The notes beneath the pieces are model-generated. The model was given only the letters and a program-made list of their open reading frames with translations. It was not told the DNA's origin and did not search any database. Positions 1 to 59,259 of a DNA stretch of 64,000 bases are shown piece by piece; position 1 is the stretch's first letter; each line of letters opens with the position of its first letter. This DNA comes from Alphaproteobacteria bacterium (GTDB lineage Bacteria > Pseudomonadota > Alphaproteobacteria > RF32 > CAG-239). Made by a program: the position numbers and the translations under genes. The stretch is taken from the NCBI GenBank assembly GCA_045613125.1, contig JAZLAM010000022.1:77813-141812 (forward strand), read 5' to 3'.

Positions 1-381
1 AAGTTTCCTTTCAATTTCTGCTGCCAAACCAAAAGCAAAAGCCAAAACTTTGCTTTGTATATCATTACCCAAGCGATAATTTTCTTTTATAGTCCAGACT
101 TGGCACTCTTTATTAAGACACGTTTCTAAAATATGCATCACTTCAAGCAGAGAACGCCCTAGACGAGATATTTCACATGAAATTAAAATATCGCCACTTG
201 TTAATTCATCTAATAATTTTCCCAATTTTCTCATGCGCAACGATTTTCGAGATGAAATTTTTTCTTCCACCCATTTATTAATTTTCAACTTATTAAGTTT
301 AGCAAAACGTTCCAACTCATATTTTTGATGCTCTAATGTTTGTTTTGAAGAACTTACACGAATATAACCAATTACAGACAT
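1..381 (-). CDS. Serine recombinase (resolvase/invertase family), N-terminal catalytic domain; C-terminal HTH part runs off the window
   Basis: Reverse-strand translation from ATG at 379-381: MSVIGYIRVSSSKQTLEHQKYELERFAKLN...GDILISCEISRLGRSLLEVMHILETC. The YIRVSS.(K)Q catalytic-serine motif and RLGRS are typical of resolvase/invertase. An RBS-like AAAGGAT lies upstream. Not in the ORF track because it is truncated by the window edge. Confidence 0.7.
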   Translation of the reverse strand, partial: MSVIGYIRVSSSKQTLEHQKYELERFAKLNKLKINKWVEEKISSRKSLRMRKLGKLLDELTSGDILISCEISRLGRSLLEVMHILETCLNKECQVWTIKENYRLGNDIQSKVLAFAFGLAAEIERKL

Positions 382-6941: not shown

Positions 6942-7448
6942 TTACCAATTAGTATTATCTAAATATTTTAACATATCGCGTATCAAACTCTTTTCATCTA
7001 CTTTAGCAATTTTATGCAATAAAGGATCTATGATACAATACCCCGATGAACAATGTTGCATAATAAAACGCCCCATGGTATCAGTAAATTTAATGTCAAG
7101 ATAGCTTTGTAAAAATGGTCGATGCTCATAATATTTCTCAAGTTCAAATTCTTTCATCAGCATATTAATCAGATCATTCCGACGCTTACTTACCGGACAA
7201 TCAGCACCAAACCAAATCACTTTTTTATGTGAAGTCTCAAATAACTCTTTAAAATATCCTTTATTACTTGTTGCATATATCTCATCAGGAATAGTTATAA
7301 TTTTTTTCGGCATAATATACATAAATGTCAACACGAGCACCAATACAAACACTACAATTTTAAAATTTGTTTTAAAATTTGAAAATTTTTGTTCTATCGG
7401 GGCTTGAGCCCTTCTTTTCTGATTGATTTCTTGTATTGTAGGCATCAA
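6942..7448 (-). CDS. Hypothetical membrane-anchored protein
   Basis: 168 aa with one N-terminal TM (IVVFVLVLVLTFMYI). No recognised domain. Confidence 0.3.
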   Translation of the reverse strand: MMPTIQEINQKRRAQAPIEQKFSNFKTNFKIVVFVLVLVLTFMYIMPKKIITIPDEIYATSNKGYFKELFETSHKKVIWFGADCPVSKRRNDLINMLMKEFELEKYYEHRPFLQSYLDIKFTDTMGRFIMQHCSSGYCIIDPLLHKIAKVDEKSLIRDMLKYLDNTNW

Positions 7449-7599
7449 CTATCTCCTAGAATAATTTATTTAAATATACAAAATAGCACTTTAAAATCAA
7501 GCATTTTTTACCCTATTTTAAACTGATAATCAGCATTTTTAATAATTACCTCCATCGAAAATATTTTATAGTCCCTATTTTTTTTGTAAACAAGAATCG

Positions 7600-7898
7600 C
7601 TAAAAGTCCTTTATTTACAATACATTCAACGATTTTAAACTGCTCGTTTTAAACGTACGTTTAAATCAAGCAGTTTTTTTGATGTTTTTTACATTTTTTT
7701 ATTTCTTCTAACTGTTTGAAAAACAATAAAAGACAATTTTTAAATTTTACAATTTTCTCATTTTTGCACTGATTAATTTAAACGTACGTTTAAATTACAC
7801 TACTGTTGTGTTTGAAAAGCTTGAAACATAAGCCAAAGCGCTTGGCAAATGTGTTGCTTTTTTAACACTTGTAACGTTACATATAAGGAGACTTAATT
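7600..7898 (+). promoter_or_regulatory. Conserved ~290-bp 5' regulatory/leader region (copy A) with two perfect 18-bp palindromes TTTAAACGTACGTTTAAA
   Basis: Palindromes at 7648-7665 and 7777-7794. A CCAAAGCGCTTGG near-palindrome and the RBS AAGGAGA lie before the ATG at 7899. High identity to 44190-44477. Confidence 0.45.
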
Positions 7899-8504
7899 AT
7901 GAAAAAACATATTTTATTAACCACAACGGCAATGTTGTTATCTGCCATAACTCTAAAAGCAAATGCCGATTCAAACAGTGCTCATTTAAATATAGATGCT
8001 TTATTTGTAAAGCCAATGGAGTTGGTTACTGAAAACAACCTTAAATTTGGTATGATTTTAGCCGATGAAGGCGGAAAAACGGTGATTGTGACTCCTAACG
8101 GAGATTTAGGAGAAACATCTACCGCAACTATGATATCTAAAGCATCATATAAAAACAGCTACCAAGGATCTTTTAATGAAGCCCAAATTAGACTAAAAGG
8201 ATTTCTAAATGAAGATTATGATGGTGCTGATTTTTTCGAGCCTAATGAAGAAAATATGAATATGGTATATACAGCAACTTTTGACAACAATGAAGTTGAG
8301 CTAAAAAGCAACACTGAATCTATAACGTGTGGAACAGTTACAGATTTTACTATCAAATATACAGCTGAAGATGATGATGCAATCTTACATGTAGGAGGAA
8401 CCTTAACCACTGCAGATTTGAGAGGCCAAACTAGATCATTAATGTGCCACGGTTCAACCACAGTTACAATAGTTGTAAATGAGGAAACTATGAAAAGTTT
8501 ATAA
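7899..8504 (+). CDS. Secreted/surface protein, paralog A (related to the 44478..45008 gene)
   Basis: Signal peptide MKKHILLTTTAMLLSAITLKANA. Shares KANA, TCGTVT and overall Thr/Ser-rich beta-like composition with paralog B. Same conserved upstream leader. Confidence 0.5.
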   Translation: MKKHILLTTTAMLLSAITLKANADSNSAHLNIDALFVKPMELVTENNLKFGMILADEGGKTVIVTPNGDLGETSTATMISKASYKNSYQGSFNEAQIRLKGFLNEDYDGADFFEPNEENMNMVYTATFDNNEVELKSNTESITCGTVTDFTIKYTAEDDDAILHVGGTLTTADLRGQTRSLMCHGSTTVTIVVNEETMKSL

Positions 8505-8569
8505 TATGTAAACTGATATAACAACCAGATAGATCCCAATTTTAATGGGAAACTATTACAAAAAGAAAC

Positions 8570-8596
8570 CCCCACGTAAAACGTGGGGATTTTTAA
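8570..8596. terminator. Bidirectional rho-independent terminator hairpin (CCCCACGT-AAA-ACGTGGGG) flanked by A/T runs
   Basis: Perfect 8-bp GC-rich stem between convergent genes (7899..8504 plus strand and adk minus strand). Confidence 0.5.
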
Positions 8597-18773: not shown

Positions 18774-20627
18774 GTGACTAAAAAATTTCTATCAGAAAAT
18801 ACAGAATTAATGAAAGAATGGGATTGGGAAGCAAATGAAGGCTTAAATCCCAATGAAATTACATGTGGTAGTCATAAAAAAGTTTGGTGGAAATGCTCAA
18901 AATGTGGATATAAGTGGTGTCAAGCTGTTGTTGATATTTCTAGAAATAAAATAGAATCATGTTGTCCTGCTTGCACTAATAGGGTTTTAATAAAAGGAAA
19001 AAATGATTTAGCGACGATGTATCCTGAAATTGCTAAAGAATGGGATTTTTATAAAAATAAGGACTTAACTCCAAATAATGTAACATTCAAATATTGTAAA
19101 AAAGTTTGGTGGCTATGCCCTAAAGGACATAGATATGAACAACGTATTGACAATAGAACCCTAAGACACACTAGTTGTCCGTACTGTTCAAATACGTGGG
19201 TTTTGAAAGGTTTTAATGATTTAGCTACAATAAATCCTAATTTAGCTAAAGAATGGCATCCATCTAAGAATGGATGTTTAACTCCTTATGATGTTACAGC
19301 AAATAGCACCAAAAAGGTTTGGTGGTTATGTCCTGTCGGGCACGAATATATAAGAAGCGTACATCAAAGACATGCTGCTTATACTAATTGTCCCACCTGT
19401 GATTCTCGTAAACGTACATCTTTTCCTGAACAAGCTGTCTATTTTTATCTTAAAAAGCTTTATCCTGATGCCATTTCAAGATATAAGATAAATGAAACAT
19501 CAAGTATGGAGCTAGATATATATATTCCTTCTATACAATTTGCGGTTGAATACGATGGAGCATCATGGCATAAAACAGAAGACTGCCATAACCGTGAGAT
19601 AAAAAAATATCAATTTTGTAAAAAATACGGAATAACATTAATAAGAATAAAAGAACAAAATGGTATATATTGGGATGATGTCTGTGATAACATTTATTAT
19701 ATAAAACCAGTAAAACGTAATGATTTATTTGAATTAGAAAAAATTATCAATTATGTTTTAAATTCAATATGTTCATCTATTGATGATTTGCTAGAAGCGA
19801 CTAGAAGCAATATTAACCCTTTGGATTATTCTAAAAGCATACAGCATATTCCATTACCAAAGCCTTTTAAACTTTTTCGCCATAAAATAGATGTAAACAT
19901 AGAAAGAGATAAAAATGAAATTCAAGGATATGTGTTCAAAATTGAAAACTCTTTGGCAGATTTACGACCTGATGTAGCAAAAAAATGGAATTATGATAAA
20001 AATGGAAATTTAACACCTGAAATGTTTAGTGTTGGCTCAGAAGAAATAGTATGGTGGAAATGTCCCAAATGTGGGCATGAATGGAAAATTTCTATAAACA
20101 GCATGACAGGAAAGAAAAGAGGAAATGGATGTGCTATATGTGCAAAAATAGAAAGAGCACAGAAAAGCGTTATAACAAAAATTAAAAATGGAAATTCTTT
20201 AGCTGAGAAAAACCCACAAAAAGCAGAATTGTGGCATCCATCTAAAAATGGAAATTTAACTCCTTATGATGTTACAGCATGTAGTTCTAAACAAATTTGG
20301 TGGTTATGTAAAAAATGTGGATACGAGTGGCAAATGAGCCCTCATAATAGAAAGAAAGGACAAGGTTGTCCCCATTGTGCTGGTAAAGTTCCTTTAGTAG
20401 GTGTTGACGACCTAGCATCAACACATCCAAAATTAACCAACGAATGGAATTATGACAAAAATATCAATATTGCACCTCAAAATGTTAAAGCAGGAAGTGA
20501 TAGAATTGTTTGGTGGAAATGTTCAAAATGTGGCTTTGAGTGGCAAGCTGTTGTTAGATTTAGAGTAAAAGGCTTAGGTAAATGTCCTCATTGTTCTAAA
20601 AAACAATTGGATTTAGGCCTAGAATAA
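18774..20627 (+). CDS. Zinc-ribbon-repeat protein: 3x treble-clef zinc-ribbon (PF14311/DUF4379-like) + DUF559/Vsr-like endonuclease-fold domain + 3x zinc-ribbon
   Basis: Six repeats of W.(W/P/H).SKNG.LTP.(D/N)VT..S.K.VWW.C.KCG(Y/H)EW....R....GCP.C. The central block FAVEYDGASWHKTEDCHNREIKKYQFCKKYGITLIRIKE resembles the DUF559/very-short-patch-repair restriction-endonuclease-like fold. GTG start. Confidence 0.6.
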   Translation: MTKKFLSENTELMKEWDWEANEGLNPNEITCGSHKKVWWKCSKCGYKWCQAVVDISRNKIESCCPACTNRVLIKGKNDLATMYPEIAKEWDFYKNKDLTPNNVTFKYCKKVWWLCPKGHRYEQRIDNRTLRHTSCPYCSNTWVLKGFNDLATINPNLAKEWHPSKNGCLTPYDVTANSTKKVWWLCPVGHEYIRSVHQRHAAYTNCPTCDSRKRTSFPEQAVYFYLKKLYPDAISRYKINETSSMELDIYIPSIQFAVEYDGASWHKTEDCHNREIKKYQFCKKYGITLIRIKEQNGIYWDDVCDNIYYIKPVKRNDLFELEKIINYVLNSICSSIDDLLEATRSNINPLDYSKSIQHIPLPKPFKLFRHKIDVNIERDKNEIQGYVFKIENSLADLRPDVAKKWNYDKNGNLTPEMFSVGSEEIVWWKCPKCGHEWKISINSMTGKKRGNGCAICAKIERAQKSVITKIKNGNSLAEKNPQKAELWHPSKNGNLTPYDVTACSSKQIWWLCKKCGYEWQMSPHNRKKGQGCPHCAGKVPLVGVDDLASTHPKLTNEWNYDKNINIAPQNVKAGSDRIVWWKCSKCGFEWQAVVRFRVKGLGKCPHCSKKQLDLGLE

Positions 20628-21890: not shown

Positions 21891-22009
21891 TTCACAGATT
21901 ACAAGATGCCACTGTTCGACAAGTAATATCAGGCAGACGGAAGCACGCCGGTGTCTTAAGGCAGATGTAACGAGACTATAATGAAAATATAGGGAAAAGA
22001 AAATAAATA

Positions 22010-22125
22010 ATATTAACATGTAACTATCTGTTGCTGATATGAGTTCTAATGTTCAACATATACAAAAAGTAATTAAAGGAAGAAAAAAACATTAGAAATT
22101 GATATATATGGTCAGAATATTTTGT
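22010..22125 (+). pseudogene. Truncated duplicate of the 5' end of the 23786..24130 gene (ELSVADMS..NV.HIQKVIKGRKK)
   Basis: About 115 bp at roughly 90% identity to 23801-23915. The reading frame is broken by a 1-nt difference in the A-run (aaaaaaacattag vs aaaaaaaccattag). Confidence 0.45.
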
Positions 22126-23728: not shown

Positions 23729-23785
23729 TAACATTAAAATGCGAAGCTATAATGAAAAATTGTAGCTTCGCTATAGGAAAAGAAA

Positions 23786-24130
23786 ATGACTAATATTAAA
23801 ATGGAACTATCTGTTGCTGATATGAGTGCAAATGTTCATCATATACAAAAGGTAATTAAAGGAAGAAAAAAACCATTAGAAATTGAGATATATGGTCAGA
23901 AAGTTTTGTTTGTTTATGATAATATTGAAATGCCTATATCTATAAAAGATATTAATACAAGTAATAATATAATACTTGCCAAGTATGTATTAATCAATCC
24001 ATTATCGCTATTTAGCTTAATTACAAAATATAAAAAGTATGATTTTTTTAAAATATCATTTGAAGATATAGGTTTAAGGATAATGATAGATAATACTGTT
24101 TTTAGCTTTTGTGCTAAAAAAGTTATGTAA
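23786..24130 (+). CDS. Hypothetical protein (its 5' part is duplicated at 22010-22125)
   Basis: 114-aa ORF; no motif recognised. Confidence 0.35.
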   Translation: MTNIKMELSVADMSANVHHIQKVIKGRKKPLEIEIYGQKVLFVYDNIEMPISIKDINTSNNIILAKYVLINPLSLFSLITKYKKYDFFKISFEDIGLRIMIDNTVFSFCAKKVM

Positions 24131-43716: not shown

Positions 43717-43801
43717 GTTATATTAAAAAAGGACCATATGTCTGTTTTAACAAAGTGTTTTTTGAATTAGTTAAATCACTTTTACTGTCATCAACCCAGT
43801 T

Positions 43802-43859
43802 AAAAAATAATATTGTCACCGCTCCGAGCAAAAAAAATAATATTGTCACCGCTCCGAGC
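43802..43859. repeat. Tandem duplication of a 29-30-bp unit (AAAAAATAATATTGTCACCGCTCCGAGC)
   Basis: Two adjacent near-identical units read directly. Confidence 0.55.
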
Positions 43860-44016
43860 GGAGCGAGGTCAAGCGGTCTTCAAATTAATAAAAAAAACTC
43901 ATCGGGAGCGATGTAAAATAATTTTTAAAAGTGGAAGATGCCTTGACGATTCCTTGCGGAATCGAGGCATGACGGTATTATATTTTCGTTTCGGAGGCAT
44001 GACGTAAAAAACACTG

Positions 44017-44113
44017 TCATCGCTCGATTGCGATAAGCAATCGTTCAGCGGTCTTCAAATTAGTTAATCGGAAGGTCCCTTGACGTTTCTTGGCAGAAAC
44101 GAGGGAAGATAGG
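44017..44113. repeat. GC-rich structured repeat (MITE/RPE-like), copy 1; copy 2 at 45160-45256
   Basis: About 97 bp at roughly 95% identity between copies. Contains palindrome CGATTGCGATAAGCAATCG and hairpin TCCCTTGACGTTTCT...AGAAACGAGGGAAGA. Extra partial units (GGAAGATGCCTTGAC...GGAGGCATGAC) occur around 43930-44000 and 45110-45145. Confidence 0.55.
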
Positions 44114-44189
44114 TTTGTGTTTTTTTGCATTTTTATGGCATAAAATTGGGATTTTTTTCAGCAAATGAGAATCGGTGAAAACCATTTAT

Positions 44190-44477
44190 TTACAATGGTT
44201 TGAAGAATTTCAAACTGTTCATTTTAAACGTACGTTTAAATCAAGCAGTTTTTTTGATGTTTTTTTCGAACTTCTATTTCTTCTAAATCTTTGAAAAACA
44301 ATAAAATGCAAATTTTAAATTTTGCAAATTTCTCCTTTTTACACTGCGTCAAAAAAACGTACGTTTAAATTACACTACTTATGTGCTGAAAAAACTTGGA
44401 AATCTGCACCAAAGCGCTTGGTGTGGTTGTTCGTTTTTTTAGCCTATGTAACGTTATATAAATAGGAGATTTTTATT
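44190..44477 (+). promoter_or_regulatory. Conserved ~290-bp 5' regulatory/leader region (copy B), highly similar to 7600-7898
   Basis: TTTAAACGTACGTTTAAA at 44223-44240, half-site AAACGTACGTTTAAA at 44355-44369, CCAAAGCGCTTGG, and RBS AGGAGA before the ATG at 44478. Confidence 0.45.
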
Positions 44478-45008
44478 ATGAAAAAAACTTTATTACTTGC
44501 CACAACCGCAATCGTTTCTGCTTTCGCTTTTAATGTAAAAGCTAACGCCCCAACAGTTGAAATTCAAGCTAAAGCTAAGGTAGTATCACCAAGTGTGTTA
44601 GAATCTATACAAGAATTAGATTTTGGCACAGTTGCATATCATTCTGGAGCTCGTTACACTGTTTCTAAGGATGGGACAGCTGAAGCAAGCGGTGATTATG
44701 CACAAATGTTTGGAACTCCTTCTGTCGGAAAAATCAAATTGAGAACAGCCCTCAGAGGTGCTAGTGAGCATTATTCTTTGTTACTACCTCAGGAAATGGA
44801 ACTAAAATTTGGTCAAAACACTTGTGGAACAGTGTCCGCTTTTTCACAGGCAACACCAACTTTTGTAAACATAGTTGACGGTGTAACTGATTACGAAATA
44901 GCATTTGGTGGCACCTTTACTATGTCTGATACACTTGAAGCGAGCATTCATCATGATGGAGCAGTTTGCTCAGGTTCTGCGACAGCTACTTTAGTGTATA
45001 CAGAATAA
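44478..45008 (+). CDS. Secreted/surface protein, paralog B (related to the 7899..8504 gene)
   Basis: Signal peptide MKKTLLLATTAIVSAFAFNVKANA; shared TCGTVS and KANA motifs. Confidence 0.5.
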   Translation: MKKTLLLATTAIVSAFAFNVKANAPTVEIQAKAKVVSPSVLESIQELDFGTVAYHSGARYTVSKDGTAEASGDYAQMFGTPSVGKIKLRTALRGASEHYSLLLPQEMELKFGQNTCGTVSAFSQATPTFVNIVDGVTDYEIAFGGTFTMSDTLEASIHHDGAVCSGSATATLVYTE

Positions 45009-45159
45009 TACACAAATGTATGTTTTTTCATTTCGGGGTGTGGAGTTTTTGCTCTGCACCTCGATGTGGTTATAATATAGAGTGAATAAAAATTATACTT
45101 TGTTTTATTCGGAAGATGCCTTGACCTCACTTCATTCGGAGGCATGACTGTCTACAAAG

Positions 45160-45256
45160 TCATCGCTCGATTGCGATAAGCAATCGTCCAGCGATCTTCA
45201 AATTAGTTAATCGGAAGGTCCCTTGACGTTTCTTGGCAGAAACGAGGGAAGACAGG
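45160..45256. repeat. GC-rich structured repeat (MITE/RPE-like), copy 2
   Basis: See the feature at 44017-44113. Confidence 0.55.
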
Positions 45257-45437
45257 GGGAATTTTTCTTAACGTTTTGGAGGCATGACTTTTTTTATTTT
45301 TTGCAGTTCGGAATCATAACATGGTTTATCTAAACAAGGTATAATTTTTTATAGTTTCAGACAGATTAAAATAAGAACTAAACCTTAATTTTAAGCATTA
45401 TAAAAACTTAAAATTATGAACAACAGGAGAAAAACTT

Positions 45438-46436
45438 ATGCCACAAGTTAGCGTAATTATCCCGACGTATAATGTGGAAAAATATATAGACATCTGCTTA
45501 GGCGCCCTACTCATCCAAAGTTTTAACGACTTTGAGGTTTTGTGCATAGACGATTGTTCCACCGACAACACAGTGCAAATCATCAAGCAATATGCAAAAC
45601 TTGATGAACGTGTAAAAATCATTCCGAACACCATCAAAGGCGGTCCTGATGTGTTGCGTGGTATCGGTATACAAAATGCTCAAAGTCCATATTGTGTTTT
45701 TGTTGATGCTGATGACTTTTTCTCTCCGTTTATGCTCGAAAAATATGTTAAAAACATTGAAGATAATGATAGCGATTTTATGTGTGGCGCAAGTTTGAGT
45801 TATAGCGATAAAACTCATGACACAACCGAGCATACAATGTTACCGCAAGAAACTTTTTTACATTATGTCAGAGATAACACTTTTAATGCATCTTCCACAC
45901 CAGACTTTTTTCCGTTTATGATGAACACCGAATTTTGGGGTAAAATTTTCAAAACCGAATTTATCAAAGAATTTACCTTTACACCAAATTCTGTGATACA
46001 AGACATTTCTTTTTGTTTTAAGTGTTTTTTCAAAGCTAAAAAAATTTCTTACCTTCTAGAACCTCTTTATGTTTATAACTATCGGCGTGAGGGTTCGCTC
46101 ACTGCCAGTTTTAATGAAAAATGGCTCGGAATTTTTTCTTCACTCGATGAAATTAAACAAACAATTCTAAACGCCGGTATGTTTGAAAAATATAAAAACA
46201 CTTATATCAATTTCAAATTATCTCGCATTTGGTTTTATCTTTTAGGTGCAAAAGCAAATTGCCAACAGGCTTTTTTTGAACACACTCAAAAAACTTTTGC
46301 AGAAGAAAACTTTTCTGATTATGACTTTAATATTTTACGCAAAAATAAGTTTTATTTTCCGACACTCGATTTATTAAACTCAAATTTTGAAGAATTTCAC
46401 GCTTGTTATGTTGACGGAGGCGATGATGATAAATAA
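45438..46436 (+). CDS. Family 2 glycosyltransferase
   Basis: VSVIIPTYNVEKYIDICLGALLIQSFNDFEVLCIDDCSTDNT; DAD motif (VFVDADDFF). Confidence 0.7.
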   Translation: MPQVSVIIPTYNVEKYIDICLGALLIQSFNDFEVLCIDDCSTDNTVQIIKQYAKLDERVKIIPNTIKGGPDVLRGIGIQNAQSPYCVFVDADDFFSPFMLEKYVKNIEDNDSDFMCGASLSYSDKTHDTTEHTMLPQETFLHYVRDNTFNASSTPDFFPFMMNTEFWGKIFKTEFIKEFTFTPNSVIQDISFCFKCFFKAKKISYLLEPLYVYNYRREGSLTASFNEKWLGIFSSLDEIKQTILNAGMFEKYKNTYINFKLSRIWFYLLGAKANCQQAFFEHTQKTFAEENFSDYDFNILRKNKFYFPTLDLLNSNFEEFHACYVDGGDDDK

Positions 46437-47400
46437 ATATGAACCAAAAATTTCGGTTATTGTGCCGGTTTATAATGTGGCTAAATATTTGCCTCAATGC
46501 TTGGACTCTTTAATTTTGCAGACATATCATAATTTGGAGATTATTTGCGTTAATGACGGCTCAAAAGATAATTCTCTCGAAATTTTAGAAGCTTATGCCC
46601 TAAAAGATAACCGGATAAAAATTGTCAATCAAGAAAACAAAGGCTTAAGTGCCACACGCAATCGTGGAGTTGAAGAAGCAACCGGAGAATGGATTTCTTT
46701 TATTGATTCTGACGATTGGGTATCGCTTTCGCTTTATCAAAAGTTTGTTGATGATATAAAAAACTGCAACCAAACAATTGATATGTATATGTTTAACGGC
46801 TTCCACTTTGGAGCAATTGAGGGAAAACAATTTAACTGTGTGATGCAGTTTTGGGATATGCGCTATTGGAACAATTTTCAAAGAACACCTCCTGTTTTTT
46901 CTTTTAGCGATTGTATCAATCCGTTTAAAGGAATTATTGCTTCTTATTTGAAAATATATCGTGCCGATTGGTATAAAGAAAATAATTTCAAATTTGCCGA
47001 AGGTATCATTTTTGAAGATATATTGTTTAATATCCAAACCGGTCTTAAAGCTAAAAACTTATATCTTAATAATGACTGGTTATACTATTATCGTGAAAAT
47101 ATGTTTTCTATCTTGCGCACATTACATCGCAATGTGTTTGATATCTTCAAAATTTTGGAGTTGGTTAAACAAGAATTTTTGCAAAACGGTCTTTATGAGC
47201 AAAAAAAATATTTGCTCTTTGCCGAACAATATTTCCAATTGTCCGAAAAACTGAAAAGTTGCCCACCTGAGCTTAAAAAAGAATTTGTGCTAAAAGCCAG
47301 AGATATGCTAAATGAAACCGTGGCTGATTTAGATGAAAAGGTTTATCGAACATTTGCTGATATACAAAGATTTGACTATCTGATGAATCTGACTGTATAA
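46423..47400 (+). CDS. Family 2 glycosyltransferase (second, tandem)
   Basis: ISVIVPVYNVAKYLPQCLDSLILQTYHNLEIICVNDGSKDNS; DSDD. Start taken at MMINKYEPK, giving a 14-bp overlap with the upstream gene. Confidence 0.7.
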   Translation: MMINKYEPKISVIVPVYNVAKYLPQCLDSLILQTYHNLEIICVNDGSKDNSLEILEAYALKDNRIKIVNQENKGLSATRNRGVEEATGEWISFIDSDDWVSLSLYQKFVDDIKNCNQTIDMYMFNGFHFGAIEGKQFNCVMQFWDMRYWNNFQRTPPVFSFSDCINPFKGIIASYLKIYRADWYKENNFKFAEGIIFEDILFNIQTGLKAKNLYLNNDWLYYYRENMFSILRTLHRNVFDIFKILELVKQEFLQNGLYEQKKYLLFAEQYFQLSEKLKSCPPELKKEFVLKARDMLNETVADLDEKVYRTFADIQRFDYLMNLTV

Positions 47401-52892: not shown

Positions 52893-54656
52893 ATGGCTAA
52901 TTATAAAAATAAAAAATCATTAAACGGAAATTTGTGGGATGTTTTATCAGCAGATGAAAGATTATCCCAAGCTCTGATGCAACAAAAAAATCTTCCTTAT
53001 ATTGTTGCAAATATACTTACTGTCAGAGGCGTAAATACAGAAAATGCTGATCTGTTTCTGAACCCCAAATTACAAACTTTATTACCTAATCCATCATGCT
53101 TAAAAGATATGGATAAAGCTGCAAAACGTATAGCAGAAGCCATCGTAAAGAAAGAAAAAATAGGTATAATTGGTGATTATGACGTAGATGGAGCAACTTC
53201 AAGTGCAGTAATGTGTAAATTCTTAAATTTTTTCGGACTTACGCCTAATGTACGTATTCCGGACAGAGAAGAAGGTTATGGCCCTTGTGAAAGTATGTTT
53301 ATTGATTTTGATAATAATGGCATAAAGTTAGTTATAACTACCGACTGTGGCACCAGTGCCTTTGAAGTGCTAGATAAAGCAGCATATGACGGTTTTGATA
53401 TAGTGGTTTTAGACCATCATGAAGCAGAAATTAAACTACCTAAAGTTTTTGCTGTGGTGAATCCCAAAAGATTAGATGAAAACAATGATTATCCTTATTT
53501 AAAATATCTGGCAGCTGTTGGGGTTGTTTTCATGACGATAGTCGCTGTTAATCGTGAACTTAAAAATATGGGGTACTATACAACTAATAAAGCTCCAGAT
53601 CTATTAAGTTTTCTCGATTTGGTTGCCTTAGGAACAGTTTGCGATGTTGTCCCCCTTTTAGGTCTTAACAGAGCTTATGTAAAGCAAGGACTTAAAATTA
53701 TATCTTTACGACAAAACTTAGGTATAAGAGCTTTAAGCGATATTGCTCAAATAGGAGAAACCTTAAGTGCATACCATTTAGGTTTTGTTTTAGGTCCAAG
53801 AATTAATGCAGGAGGTAGGGTTGGTGACCCATCAATAGGAAATAAACTGCTTTGCACCACAAATGAAATTGAAGCTAAGAATCTGGCTGAGAAATTAAAT
53901 AATTTCAACATTGAAAGAAAAGAAATAGAATCGTACGTTTTACTGCAGGCTATTGAAGTTTTAGAAGGTACAGCTCAAGAATATCCGATGGCTTTTGTTT
54001 ATGGCTCAGACTGGCATCAAGGTGTTATAGGTATTGTTGCAGGAAAACTTAAAGAACGATATAATGTCCCTGCTTTTGTTATGTCTGTTGAACAAGATGA
54101 AGTTAAAGGATCAGCACGTTCAATTGCCGGAATTGATTTAGGAGCATTGATTATCGCGGCAAAGGAAAAAGGCCTTTTAACCAAAGGCGGCGGACACACT
54201 ATGGCTGCCGGATTTTCTTTAAATGAAGATAAAATAGATGAATTTAAAAAATTTGTCGGAGAATATATAAAATCTAAATTAGGTGAAGAAAAAATAACTC
54301 CGATAATAAGCATAGATGGAACAGTTTCATTATCCGGAGCTAATGAAAAACTTGCTGAAGCGATTGAACTGCTTGAACCTTTCGGCGCTTCAAATCCGGA
54401 ACCTAAAATCATAATTGAAAACGTTTACTTTGCCAATCAATCTATTATAGGAAGTGGTCATGTAAGATGTTTCTTAACTGATGAGTTCGGTCAAAAATTA
54501 AAATCAATTGCTTTTAGAGCGGCAGACACTCAAGTCGGAAAAGAAATTTTGGCTTCGAGAGGTGAACGCTTTGATGTAGCGGGAACTTTAAGAAAAGATA
54601 CCTGGCAAGGTAGAACATCCTTACAATTTATCATCGAAGATATCATGAGGGTATAA
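52893..54656 (+). CDS. recJ: Single-stranded-DNA-specific exonuclease RecJ
   Basis: DHH motifs (GDYDVDGATS, VVLDHHE), a DHHA1 domain (GGGHTMAAG) and a C-terminal OB domain. Confidence 0.85.
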   Translation: MANYKNKKSLNGNLWDVLSADERLSQALMQQKNLPYIVANILTVRGVNTENADLFLNPKLQTLLPNPSCLKDMDKAAKRIAEAIVKKEKIGIIGDYDVDGATSSAVMCKFLNFFGLTPNVRIPDREEGYGPCESMFIDFDNNGIKLVITTDCGTSAFEVLDKAAYDGFDIVVLDHHEAEIKLPKVFAVVNPKRLDENNDYPYLKYLAAVGVVFMTIVAVNRELKNMGYYTTNKAPDLLSFLDLVALGTVCDVVPLLGLNRAYVKQGLKIISLRQNLGIRALSDIAQIGETLSAYHLGFVLGPRINAGGRVGDPSIGNKLLCTTNEIEAKNLAEKLNNFNIERKEIESYVLLQAIEVLEGTAQEYPMAFVYGSDWHQGVIGIVAGKLKERYNVPAFVMSVEQDEVKGSARSIAGIDLGALIIAAKEKGLLTKGGGHTMAAGFSLNEDKIDEFKKFVGEYIKSKLGEEKITPIISIDGTVSLSGANEKLAEAIELLEPFGASNPEPKIIIENVYFANQSIIGSGHVRCFLTDEFGQKLKSIAFRAADTQVGKEILASRGERFDVAGTLRKDTWQGRTSLQFIIEDIMRV

Positions 54657-57980: not shown

Positions 57981-59259
57981 CTCTATTCTCCACGACCTTT
58001 GTTTTTACTATACCATCAACAAAACGTATGTTTAATTCTCCACTTTTTTTTGCATGTGAAGCATCATAAAGCGTTTTAAAATGCCTATCTGTCACCCAAG
58101 CAAAGCCTCGTTTTAATACGCTATCTATAGAAACACTTTCCATTCTTGAAGACAAAGAACCTAACATTGTTTTTTGTTTCTCAACTATATTATTTATCAA
58201 ATACGGTTTTAATCCGACCAAACCTACGTTTTGCTGTTTTATTCCCATATAATTAGATATTACCATTTTAATCCGCTCGGATATATCATCAAGTTTTTGT
58301 TGATTTTCCAATATAATTTGTTCTAAATTAGGAATTCCTCTCTCTAGACCTTCAATTTTTTGTTCATATTCTTTAAGTAAACGATACATTGCATTTAAGA
58401 TTCTTCCTTGATACGAAGATAAAGCAAACATCAAATCTGATTTAACAGGAACGGCAAATTCGGCCGCACCCGTAGGCGTAGGCGCTCTAACATCTGCAAC
58501 ATAATCAATCAACATAGTATCTGTTTCATGCCCTACTGCAGAAATAATCGGTATCTGGCTGTTATAAACTGCTCTTATGACCACTTCTTCATTGAAAGGC
58601 CATAAATCTTCCAAACTTCCACCTCCTCGAGCCACTATTATAACATCGGGTCTGGGGATATTAATTATCGGAAGCTTATTAAAGCCATCTATAGCTGTTG
58701 CTATTTTATCCGCCGCCCCCTCACCTTGTACTGGTGTAGGCCAAACAATGACATGCGTCGGAAAACGGTCACTCACACGATGGATAATATCTCTAATAAC
58801 TGCCCCTGAAGGACTGGTAACCACACCTATAACTTTCGGCAAAAATGGAATTTTTTGTTTATGTGCTACATCGAACAAACCTTCTTGCAAAAATTTTTGC
58901 TTTCTTTCTTCCAAAAGCTTTAATAAAGCACCTGTTCCTGCAATTTCTAAACGCTCTATTACCAATTGATATGATGACTTTCCGGCAAAAGTAGTTATTT
59001 TTCCGGTTGCAATCACTTCCAAACCATCTTCTATTTTAACATTAAGAGCTGAAGCGACACCCTTCCAGCAAACAGCTGATAATACAGCATTAGCATCTTT
59101 TAGAGATAAATACCAATGTCCGGAATCAGCTTTTTTCGCACCAAAAATTTCACCTCTAACCCTAACCTGATTAAAAGTTGTTTCCACACATTTTTTTATG
59201 GCAAAAGAAATTTCGCTTACACTATATTCTACCAATTGCAACATACTATCCTCTATCAT
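57949..59259 (-). CDS. xseA: Exodeoxyribonuclease VII large subunit
   Basis: OB-fold N-terminus (VRVRGEIFGAKK..GHWYLSLKD) and RGGGSLEDLWPFNEE hallmark. Confidence 0.85.
   Translation of the reverse strand: MIEDSMLQLVEYSVSEISFAIKKCVETTFNQVRVRGEIFGAKKADSGHWYLSLKDANAVLSAVCWKGVASALNVKIEDGLEVIATGKITTFAGKSSYQLVIERLEIAGTGALLKLLEERKQKFLQEGLFDVAHKQKIPFLPKVIGVVTSPSGAVIRDIIHRVSDRFPTHVIVWPTPVQGEGAADKIATAIDGFNKLPIINIPRPDVIIVARGGGSLEDLWPFNEEVVIRAVYNSQIPIISAVGHETDTMLIDYVADVRAPTPTGAAEFAVPVKSDLMFALSSYQGRILNAMYRLLKEYEQKIEGLERGIPNLEQIILENQQKLDDISERIKMVISNYMGIKQQNVGLVGLKPYLINNIVEKQKTMLGSLSSRMESVSIDSVLKRGFAWVTDRHFKTLYDASHAKKSGELNIRFVDGIVKTKVVENRDAEQFDLFDL

Follow-up and report, generated by a model that had tools for sequence, protein, structure and literature searches.

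What does a conserved stretch of noncoding DNA do in front of two genes whose products are only distantly related? The question is raised by a 64,000-nucleotide stretch of a genome assigned to the Alphaproteobacteria (assembly GCA_045613125.1, contig JAZLAM010000022.1, positions 77,813 to 141,812 of the forward strand), hereafter the window, in which two genes for secreted proteins, A and B, are preceded by similar leaders. An earlier note on this DNA had drawn attention to these leaders and to an 18-bp perfect palindrome that occurs twice upstream of gene A, and had guessed at a phase-regulated family of surface proteins. We consider it likely that each leader is a phase-variation switch (inverton), turned by a recombinase of the Mpi type and controlling alternative pilin genes. 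The guess of phase regulation was correct, in our view by way of site-specific inversion, and the idea of a regulatory module common to a secreted surface-protein family was right in outline. The two genes are as follows.

7899-8504, forward strand: gene A, encoding a 201-amino-acid secreted DUF4402 protein (Pfam DUF4402, 26 bits)
44478-45008, forward strand: gene B, encoding a 176-amino-acid secreted DUF4402 protein of a second pilin subfamily (Pfam DUF4402, 35.8 bits)

From about position 7592 to the ATG of gene A and from 44167 to the ATG of gene B, the two leaders are 79.2% identical (247/312 columns). The mature coding DNA of the two genes is at background identity (53.9%), and the DNA further upstream is 52.1% identical. 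The earlier description of leaders nearly identical over about 290 bp was thus overstated, although similarity extends over about 310 bp and the noncoding leader is indeed better conserved than the coding DNA. The encoded proteins share 25% identity (E = 6e-8) and the DUF4402 family, as expected of distant relatives. A segmental duplication carrying leader and gene at equal identity, which the note had named as the finding that would overturn its view, does not apply, since the coding DNA is at background.

Further copies of the leader, on which the same view depended, do exist. Homologous genes in six related loci (L001, L003, L024, L028, L034, and L041) are preceded by it, with 70 to 86% identity to leader A. 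A third paralog, P0026, lies outside the window on the same 259-kb contig, and the N-terminal extension annotated for it is a translation of this leader's final part; there are thus at least three leader copies in this genome. We found no copy of the leader in viral contigs, and a scan of Joint Genome Institute (JGI) metagenomes with the inner conserved block CTAANNNTTTGAAAAACAATAAAA gave 20 matches, all attributable to chance and none accompanied by the rest of the leader.

The leader is organized around short inverted repeats, a left one (IRL) and a right one (IRR). The parts of the two proposed switches are listed below.

7592-7647, forward strand: fixed left flank of switch A, containing GAATCG, TTTATTTACAAT, and a sigma-70-like TTTACA-N16-TAAACT at 7614-7641
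7648-7665: IRL and left crossover site of switch A, a perfect palindrome of 18 bp centered between 7656 and 7657
7657-7785: invertible segment of switch A, 129 bp from center to center, 80% A+T
7777-7794: IRR and right crossover site of switch A, a perfect palindrome of 18 bp centered between 7785 and 7786
7796-7801, forward strand: TACACT, candidate fixed -10 hexamer
44167-44222, forward strand: fixed left flank of switch B, 73% identical to that of A
44223-44240: IRL and left site of switch B, a perfect palindrome of 18 bp centered between 44231 and 44232
44232-44360: invertible segment of switch B, 129 bp, in the same orientation as in A
44352-44369: IRR of switch B, AAAAAACGTACGTTTAAA, with the exact 15-bp core AAACGTACGTTTAAA, followed by TACACT at 44371-44376

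The 18-mer TTTAAACGTACGTTTAAA is present exactly at both positions reported earlier for leader A and at the IRL of switch B, and with three mismatches at the IRR of switch B. Allowing up to three mismatches, the window holds five matches, compared with 0.18 expected, a number reached in 0/100 shuffles. The site core, AAACG-TA-CGTTTAA, is extended in locus A into the 18-bp palindrome, and all four sites of the two loci carry an exact copy of the 12-bp core AAACGTACGTTT. At locus A, each 18-mer is part of a longer inverted repeat with arms of 27 nucleotides (7648-7674 and 7768-7794) that are 93% complementary and have 93 nucleotides between them; locus B has the matching layout (44223-44249 and 44343-44369). 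Both loci therefore present one hallmark of an inverton, a pair of inverted repeats flanking a short segment upstream of a gene. The segments themselves are 83.7% identical between A and B from site center to site center, and 36.6 kb separate the two switches. Within the whole leader, a block of 23 nucleotides on the inner side of the left repeat, ACGTTTAAATCAAGCAGTTTTTT, varies least; in segment A, the invariant block AAATCAAGCAGTTTTTT adjoins the IRL. The blocks of the left flank are common to all leaders that include it (6/6), and a promoter and an accessory recombination site are both candidate roles for that flank in A. Near-matches to the repeat core at 53929, 58022, and 58220 fall inside recJ-like and xseA-like genes, lack extended repeats, and are taken as chance. 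The one-mismatch copies of AAACGTACGTTT at 58022-58033 and 58220-58231 are 198 bp apart in the gene for the large subunit of exonuclease VII.

The site resembles a known recombinase target. PMC8375218 quotes the Bacteroides fragilis Mpi repeat as ARACGTTCGTN, to which AAACGTACGTT conforms at 10/11 positions, the mismatch being the central base; the L001-type site, AAACGTTGGTT, has the central T of the Bacteroides repeat. Invertons of Bacteroides intestinalis capsule loci span 183 to 186 bp and are flanked by GTTCGTTTAA (PMC8375218), and the site found here, AAACGTACGTTTAA, differs from the Bacteroides Mpi repeat at the central base only.

Two of the related loci reveal which property of the sites is conserved. 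In L001 and L028, the left site reads AAACC-AA-CGTTT and the right site AAACG-TT-GGTTT, so that neither is palindromic, yet the two are exact reverse complements with an asymmetric AA/TT center. What is conserved in this pair, judging from the sequences, is the mutual inverted-repeat relation and the AA/TT center rather than the dyad symmetry of an operator. The distance between centers is also constant, at 129 bp in A, B, L024, L041, L003, and L001 and 128 bp in L028.

Evidence for inversion comes from assembled, related metagenome contigs rather than from reads of this genome. Contigs L037 and L038, which are from different samples, encode P0039, an 84%-identical ortholog of protein B. Upstream of the IRR they read ...CATCAAAAAAACTGCTTGATTT|AAACGTACGTTTAAATTACACT, the reverse complement of what follows the IRL in the window. 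After in silico inversion of 44232-44360, leader B is colinear with positions 1-204 of L037 at 99% identity and 99.5% identical to positions 17-210 of L038; aligned with the window orientation, L037 breaks into two pieces on opposite strands. The window orientation is seen in nine other contigs or loci, and the flipped one only in L037 and L038 (2 of about 11).

These observations bear on two other accounts of the leader. In the first, close to what the earlier note had proposed, a dimeric transcription factor uses the palindromes as operators, occupying both of them cooperatively with looping of the DNA; a candidate is the TetR-family protein encoded beside the pilus operon of the relatives. 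Perfect or near-perfect palindromes of this size are typical of operators, in L001 and L003 the operon is followed by a gene for a TetR_N protein, and the IRR would overlap the promoter spacer, a common position for a repressor. However, the L001 and L028 sites have lost their own symmetry and kept their mutual complementarity, the distance between centers is fixed, the intervening DNA is found inverted, and the site matches the Mpi repeat. Moreover, no TetR gene lies near either locus in the window, and the 198-amino-acid TetR-family protein of L003 has no tblastn match there. An operator and looping mechanism is thus very improbable in our estimate, whereas the other half of the earlier proposal, a protein dimer at each palindrome that brings the two sites together, very probably stands.

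The second account holds that no switching takes place today: the flipped contigs would be assembly chimeras or relics of one old inversion, and the leader a duplicated promoter kept similar by gene conversion. The leader is troublesome for assemblers, as nine contigs break inside it (L025, L026, L027, L029, L032, L033, L034, L037, and L038), and both of the flipped contigs end inside the segment. Even so, the same junction is present in two assemblies from different samples, with differing sequence beyond it, and the contig name k141_... suggests assembly with 141-mers (as inferred from the name), longer than the approximately 36 nucleotides shared between leaders. The constant spacing, the compensatory changes in the sites, and the conserved Mpi-family gene described below point to selection on an active system. 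Because the junction recurs in two samples, and because of the spacing, the gene, and the match of the sites, an assembly artifact is unlikely, and we give the absence of present-day switching as a whole only a slight chance. Many contigs, L040 as well as the nine above, start inside the leader or at a repeat, which is what an assembler would do with a multicopy element of variable orientation.

If the leaders are switches, an enzyme has to turn them. The window begins within a gene for a candidate.

1-381, reverse strand: 5' part (127 codons) of a gene for a serine site-specific recombinase, probably of the Mpi family, cut by the start of the window

This gene was found by tblastn with Hin (28% identity over 130 amino acids, E = 7e-7). 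Its translation starts with MSVIGYIRVSSSKQ, carries the catalytic YxRVS motif, and matches Pfam Resolvase (E = 1.2e-26) and NCBIfam NF009949 ("master DNA invertase Mpi family"; 196.7 bits). The full-length P0045 (203 amino acids), on the same 259-kb contig, aligns end to end with NF009949 at 267.7 bits, with the next family at 33 bits; a close homolog, P0158, scores 274.4 bits. Homologs about 80% identical are found on many contigs, one of which is named by its source as from an Alphaproteobacteria metagenome-assembled genome (MAG). The gene at 1-381 is the one of this kind seen in the window and adjoins neither switch, with switch A 7 kb and switch B 44 kb away. No serine recombinase is encoded at the fetched pilin loci (tblastn with Hin), which fits action in trans; nine L003 proteins used as tblastn queries against the window gave no serine-recombinase match either. 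We regard the recombinase at 1-381 as the best candidate enzyme for both switches, acting in trans.

The likeness to Mpi extends beyond the repeat. In B. fragilis, the serine recombinase Mpi turns 13 regions, of which seven are promoters of capsule loci (PMC4747536). As in that system, a small serine recombinase of about 200 amino acids, from the same NCBIfam family (here just under its cutoff), has its gene at a distance from the target sites and would act on several scattered loci; the inverted repeats are short and have the same core, and short promoter-bearing segments precede genes for surface structures. In contrast, the present system belongs to an alphaproteobacterium, DUF4402 pilin genes take the place of capsule operons as targets, and the segment has 129 bp rather than 183 to 186 bp. 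The central dinucleotide is a symmetric TA in most copies, and the promoter is predicted to be split between a moving -35 and a fixed -10 and to be of the sigma-70 rather than the Bacteroides type. An Mpi-type system of several invertons is of a known kind; what is notable here is the host phylum, the pilin targets, the very short switch, and the apparently split promoter.

How would orientation be read? Flipping the segment in silico places the invariant block next to the IRR as AAAAAAACTGCTTGATT, which provides an A-tract and a candidate -35 hexamer, TTGATT, 17 bp upstream of TACACT. The resulting TTGATT-N17-TACACT or TATACT arises in 7/7 leaders, and nothing comparable is present in the window orientation. 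In the window orientation, the block instead pairs with the fixed flank (AAACTGCT...) to form a hairpin of -7.8 to -14.7 kcal/mol followed by six to seven U residues in 6/6 leaders, a U-run that disappears from the IRL hairpin upon in silico inversion. The same 23 nucleotides would serve both roles, as hairpin and U-run in one orientation and as A-tract and -35 element in the other. Because both window copies have the hairpin and U-run and no gene-facing -35 element, they are predicted to be OFF. That they are OFF and that L037 and L038 represent the ON state is the assignment we moderately favor over its reverse. From the promoter consensus, orientation is predicted to control transcription of the downstream gene. 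A gene-facing promoter inside the segment in the window orientation was considered and rejected: its best candidate, TTGAAA-N17-TTTAAA, lacks key -10 bases, and nothing conserved emerged from the scan. The sigma-70-like TTTACA-N16-TAAACT of the left flank is present in 6/7 leaders, with leader B having CAAACT at the -10. A-tract phasing was also considered as an aid to looping: spacing of A-tracts within the segment peaks at 10 to 11 bp in A and L003/L001 and at 12 bp in B, L024, and L041, set against a weak shuffle control.

Downstream of the IRR, the transcript is predicted to fold.

7806-7870, forward strand: predicted folded 5' untranslated region (5' UTR), in which TTGTGTT (7806-7812) pairs with AACACTT (7864-7870) and an A-run with a U-run, capped by the apical hairpin GCCAAAGCGCTTGGC (7832-7846)
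44407-44423, forward strand: apical hairpin of the 5' UTR of B, CACCAAAGCGCTTGGTG

With RNAalifold, 91% of cells were paired across the seven leaders, compared with 35 to 57% in slid controls. Four pairs change on both sides, a number matched by 12/500 shuffles; A closes the apical hairpin with a G-C pair, B and L003 with A-U, and L024 and L034 with G-U. The second conserved near-palindrome of the earlier note, CCAAAGCGCTTGG, is present at both loci (7833-7845 in A and 44409-44421 in B), and is better read as this apical hairpin than as a protein site. The same region had suggested a sigma-54 promoter (TGGCAC-N5-TTGCW), with the palindromes as enhancer sites, and TGGCAAATGTGTTGCT fits that pattern only in A (7842-7857) and L041. 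We rejected this reading because B, L003, L024, and L034 lack the -12 GC; the bases at the putative -12 covary as the RNA hairpin instead.

These structures invite a reading at the level of RNA, in which a long 5' UTR starts from the left-flank promoter, the hairpin and U-run at the first site act as an attenuator, and pairing between the two sites provides the alternative structure. The hairpin with its six to seven U residues is found at the IRL of every leader tested, and changes in its 5' arm (AAATTGCT in L003; AAACTGTT in B) give G-U pairs and not mismatches; a promoter-like sequence does lie upstream, and covariation is seen downstream of the IRR. Nevertheless, transcription from the left-flank promoter would miss part of the terminator, as its predicted -10 lies across the hairpin's 5' arm. 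Complementarity between the sites is equally expected of DNA repeats, the inverted contigs and the Mpi-repeat match are left unexplained, and the leader has no family match in Rfam (best E = 0.47, far below the gathering score). An RNA-level leader as the full explanation therefore seems to us highly unlikely, although folding of the RNA may still contribute to how the switch is read, by analogy with cwpV.

In the recombinase-driven switch that we favor, a dimer of the Mpi-family enzyme would bind each palindromic site; two dimers would synapse, cut at the central dinucleotide, and exchange strands, inverting the AT-rich segment. With the segment as in the window, the block adjoining the IRL would form the hairpin and U-run on the sense strand and leave the gene without a -35 element directed toward it (OFF). 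Once inverted, the block would lie next to the IRR and supply the A-tract and TTGATT ahead of the fixed TACACT (ON), and transcription would start at the foot of the folded 5' UTR and continue into the pilin gene. As at least three switches precede divergent DUF4402 pilin genes, one invertase could vary the choice of subunit independently at each.

The model can be compared with established switches. In Escherichia coli fimS, acted on by FimB and FimE, and in Proteus mirabilis mrp, an invertible promoter upstream of the major-subunit gene of a chaperone-usher operon gives ON/OFF phase variation. The leaders described here likewise place an invertible promoter element directly upstream of a probable pilus subunit gene. 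In fimS and mrp, the recombinases are adjacent tyrosine recombinases, the repeats are short and nonpalindromic, the segments span about 250 to 314 bp, and each operon has one switch; here, no tyrosine recombinase is involved, and the switch is copied before several pilin paralogs. The Hin/hix and Gin/gix systems share with the present one a serine recombinase (with the YxRVS motif and the stated identity to Hin) and sites in which two inverted half-sites flank a central dinucleotide. In Hin-type systems, the segment that inverts is of kilobase size, lies at a single locus, and contains the invertase gene and a Fis-dependent enhancer, in contrast to the 129-bp segment and remote gene found here, for which no enhancer is known. 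Finally, the orientation of the Clostridioides difficile cwpV switch is read partly through an intrinsic terminator that forms in one orientation only, to which the hairpin and U-run at the IRL in the window orientation are similar. The cwpV switch uses the tyrosine recombinase RecV, has its promoter wholly outside the switch, and regulates a cell wall protein.

Several points weigh against the proposed switch. The flipped state is present only in contigs from other samples and not in this genome, and since L037 and L038 both end 38 to 44 nucleotides into the segment, the far junction at the IRL is not covered. The inner parts of these two contigs also differ, one being B-like and the other like L034, which could reflect independent strains, exchange between loci, or misassembly; formally, such contigs could also arise from chimeric assembly at the repeat or from a large inversion that involves two different copies of the leader. 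With respect to the enzyme, we infer that the recombinase at 1-381 acts on these particular sites, P0045 falls 4 bits below the curated NF009949 cutoff of 272, the 129-bp segment is shorter than the cited Bacteroides switches, and no accessory factor has been identified. The predicted hybrid promoter matches 8/12 consensus positions, compared with 9/12 for the fixed left-flank promoter, which could drive transcription in either state, and phasing of A-tracts is clear only in A and L003/L001. Lastly, the assignment of A and B as pilins draws on gene context in relatives and on weak fold matches, with no chaperone or usher gene in the window.

That context is nonetheless informative. Protein A has 36 homologs, in which the signal peptide (MKKHILLTTTAMLLSA...) is almost invariant and the mature parts are divergent. 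In L001 and L028 (European Nucleotide Archive contigs) and in L003, next to the A-type gene come genes for a DUF4402 protein of 316 amino acids, a chaperone (PapD_N), and a large protein of about 900 amino acids (905 in L003), in that order downstream. The more distant L035 has a B-type gene, a GIY-YIG gene, two genes of glycosyltransferase family 2 (GT2), and then a similar set of DUF4402, chaperone, and large-protein genes. Across L001, L003, and L035, the PapD_N match has an E value of 5.5e-8 and the large protein has 900 to 1,200 amino acids; although of usher size, the latter matches no usher family in Pfam, only CarboxypepD_reg. In the window, tblastn with nine L003 proteins matched only the pilin and the 200-amino-acid protein and detected no chaperone or usher gene; A and B are thus orphans there. 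The AlphaFold2 (AF2) model of protein A has a predicted local distance difference test (pLDDT) score of 83.6, and its top Foldseek matches in the PDB are the pilins Caf1, CfaB, PapK, FaeG, and FimA, at nonsignificant values (E ≥ 0.03, template-modeling score of about 0.3); by sequence, protein A has no match in the PDB. Together, the relatives' gene order and these fold matches suggest that A and B are probable pilus subunits. A scan of species-representative genomes with the pilin profile retrieved only one related locus, L003, so that the window's own genome does not belong to that set; this closest genome is titled an Alphaproteobacteria MAG. No mention of DUF4402 was found in the literature searched.

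If these assignments hold, what was an anonymous conserved leader can be tested as a switch, for which the crossover points are defined, an enzyme is proposed, and the ON state is predicted. A broader proposal, which we advance tentatively and hold to be somewhat short of an even chance, is that an uncultured, probably gut-associated lineage of Alphaproteobacteria possesses a complete Mpi-type master invertase together with its cognate repeat module, of nearly unchanged specificity, placed before alternative pilin genes in 129-bp split-promoter switches. No description of an Mpi-type multilocus inverton system in Alphaproteobacteria was found in the literature searched. Were the proposal true, Mpi-type global phase variation would extend beyond Bacteroidales to a poorly known alphaproteobacterial lineage, and pilus subunits would vary combinatorially. 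The same repeat core in two phyla would also raise the question of joint horizontal transfer of recombinase and sites, with the whole system either transferred between phyla or conserved from very long ago. DUF4402 would gain a first functional handle, as a family of phase-variable, fast-diverging pilus subunits of the chaperone-usher-like type. In practice, switches of this sort fragment metagenome assemblies, and read sets already available can be used to score which way they face.

Several further features accompany the two loci.

7870-7881: palindrome TGTAACGTTACA, 12 bp and perfect, just upstream of the Shine-Dalgarno sequence AAGGAG (7885-7890) of gene A
8566-8592: bidirectional terminator hairpin after gene A
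45438-47400: two GT2 glycosyltransferase genes after gene B (Pfam GT2)

The 12-bp palindrome before the Shine-Dalgarno sequence reads TGTAACGTTATA in locus B (44453-44464) and is nearly invariant across all leaders. The distant relative L035, without the switch, has a similar TTTAACGTTAAA in the same place (L035 7963-7974), and the palindrome may be a separate regulator site. The GT2 pair follows the B-type gene both in the window and in L035 (9475-11440), where the DUF4402, chaperone, and usher-sized genes come next, which hints at pilin glycosylation or at what is left of a larger pilus locus. L035 also carries, upstream of its B-type gene, a tRNA-like gene with a second copy of its 3' end (CTCAGCGCCCACCAAT) about 170 bp later (6970-7230), which looks like the scar of an integrated element. 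On three contigs, two A-type pilin genes lie in tandem about 20 nucleotides apart (L030 2-1248, L031 1-1241, and L032 15-1260); these contigs have no complete leader, and the tandem genes may share a single one.

Locus B, comprising switch and gene, is bracketed by arrays of short palindromic repeats at 43790-44135 and 45105-45290, with units such as GATGCCTTGAC...GAGGCATGAC and GTCATCGCTCGATTGCGATAAGCAATCG. The arrays include a 103-nucleotide direct repeat (44011-44113 and 45154-45256) whose copies are 95% identical and 1,143 bp apart, and the same units are found just upstream of the leader in L024, L041, L003, and L028. They may be elements resembling repetitive extragenic palindromes (REP) or miniature inverted-repeat transposable elements (MITE), or a recombination hot spot that moves the pilin cassette. 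Elsewhere in the window, a 98-nucleotide direct repeat (21993-22090 and 23776-23873) has copies 92% identical and 1,783 bp apart, the second covering the start of the open reading frame at 23786-24130. The gene at 18774-20627 encodes a 617-amino-acid protein with six DUF4379 treble-clef zinc-finger repeats and a weak restriction-endonuclease-like match, and its internal DNA repeats recur mostly at spacings of 213 and 246 bp.

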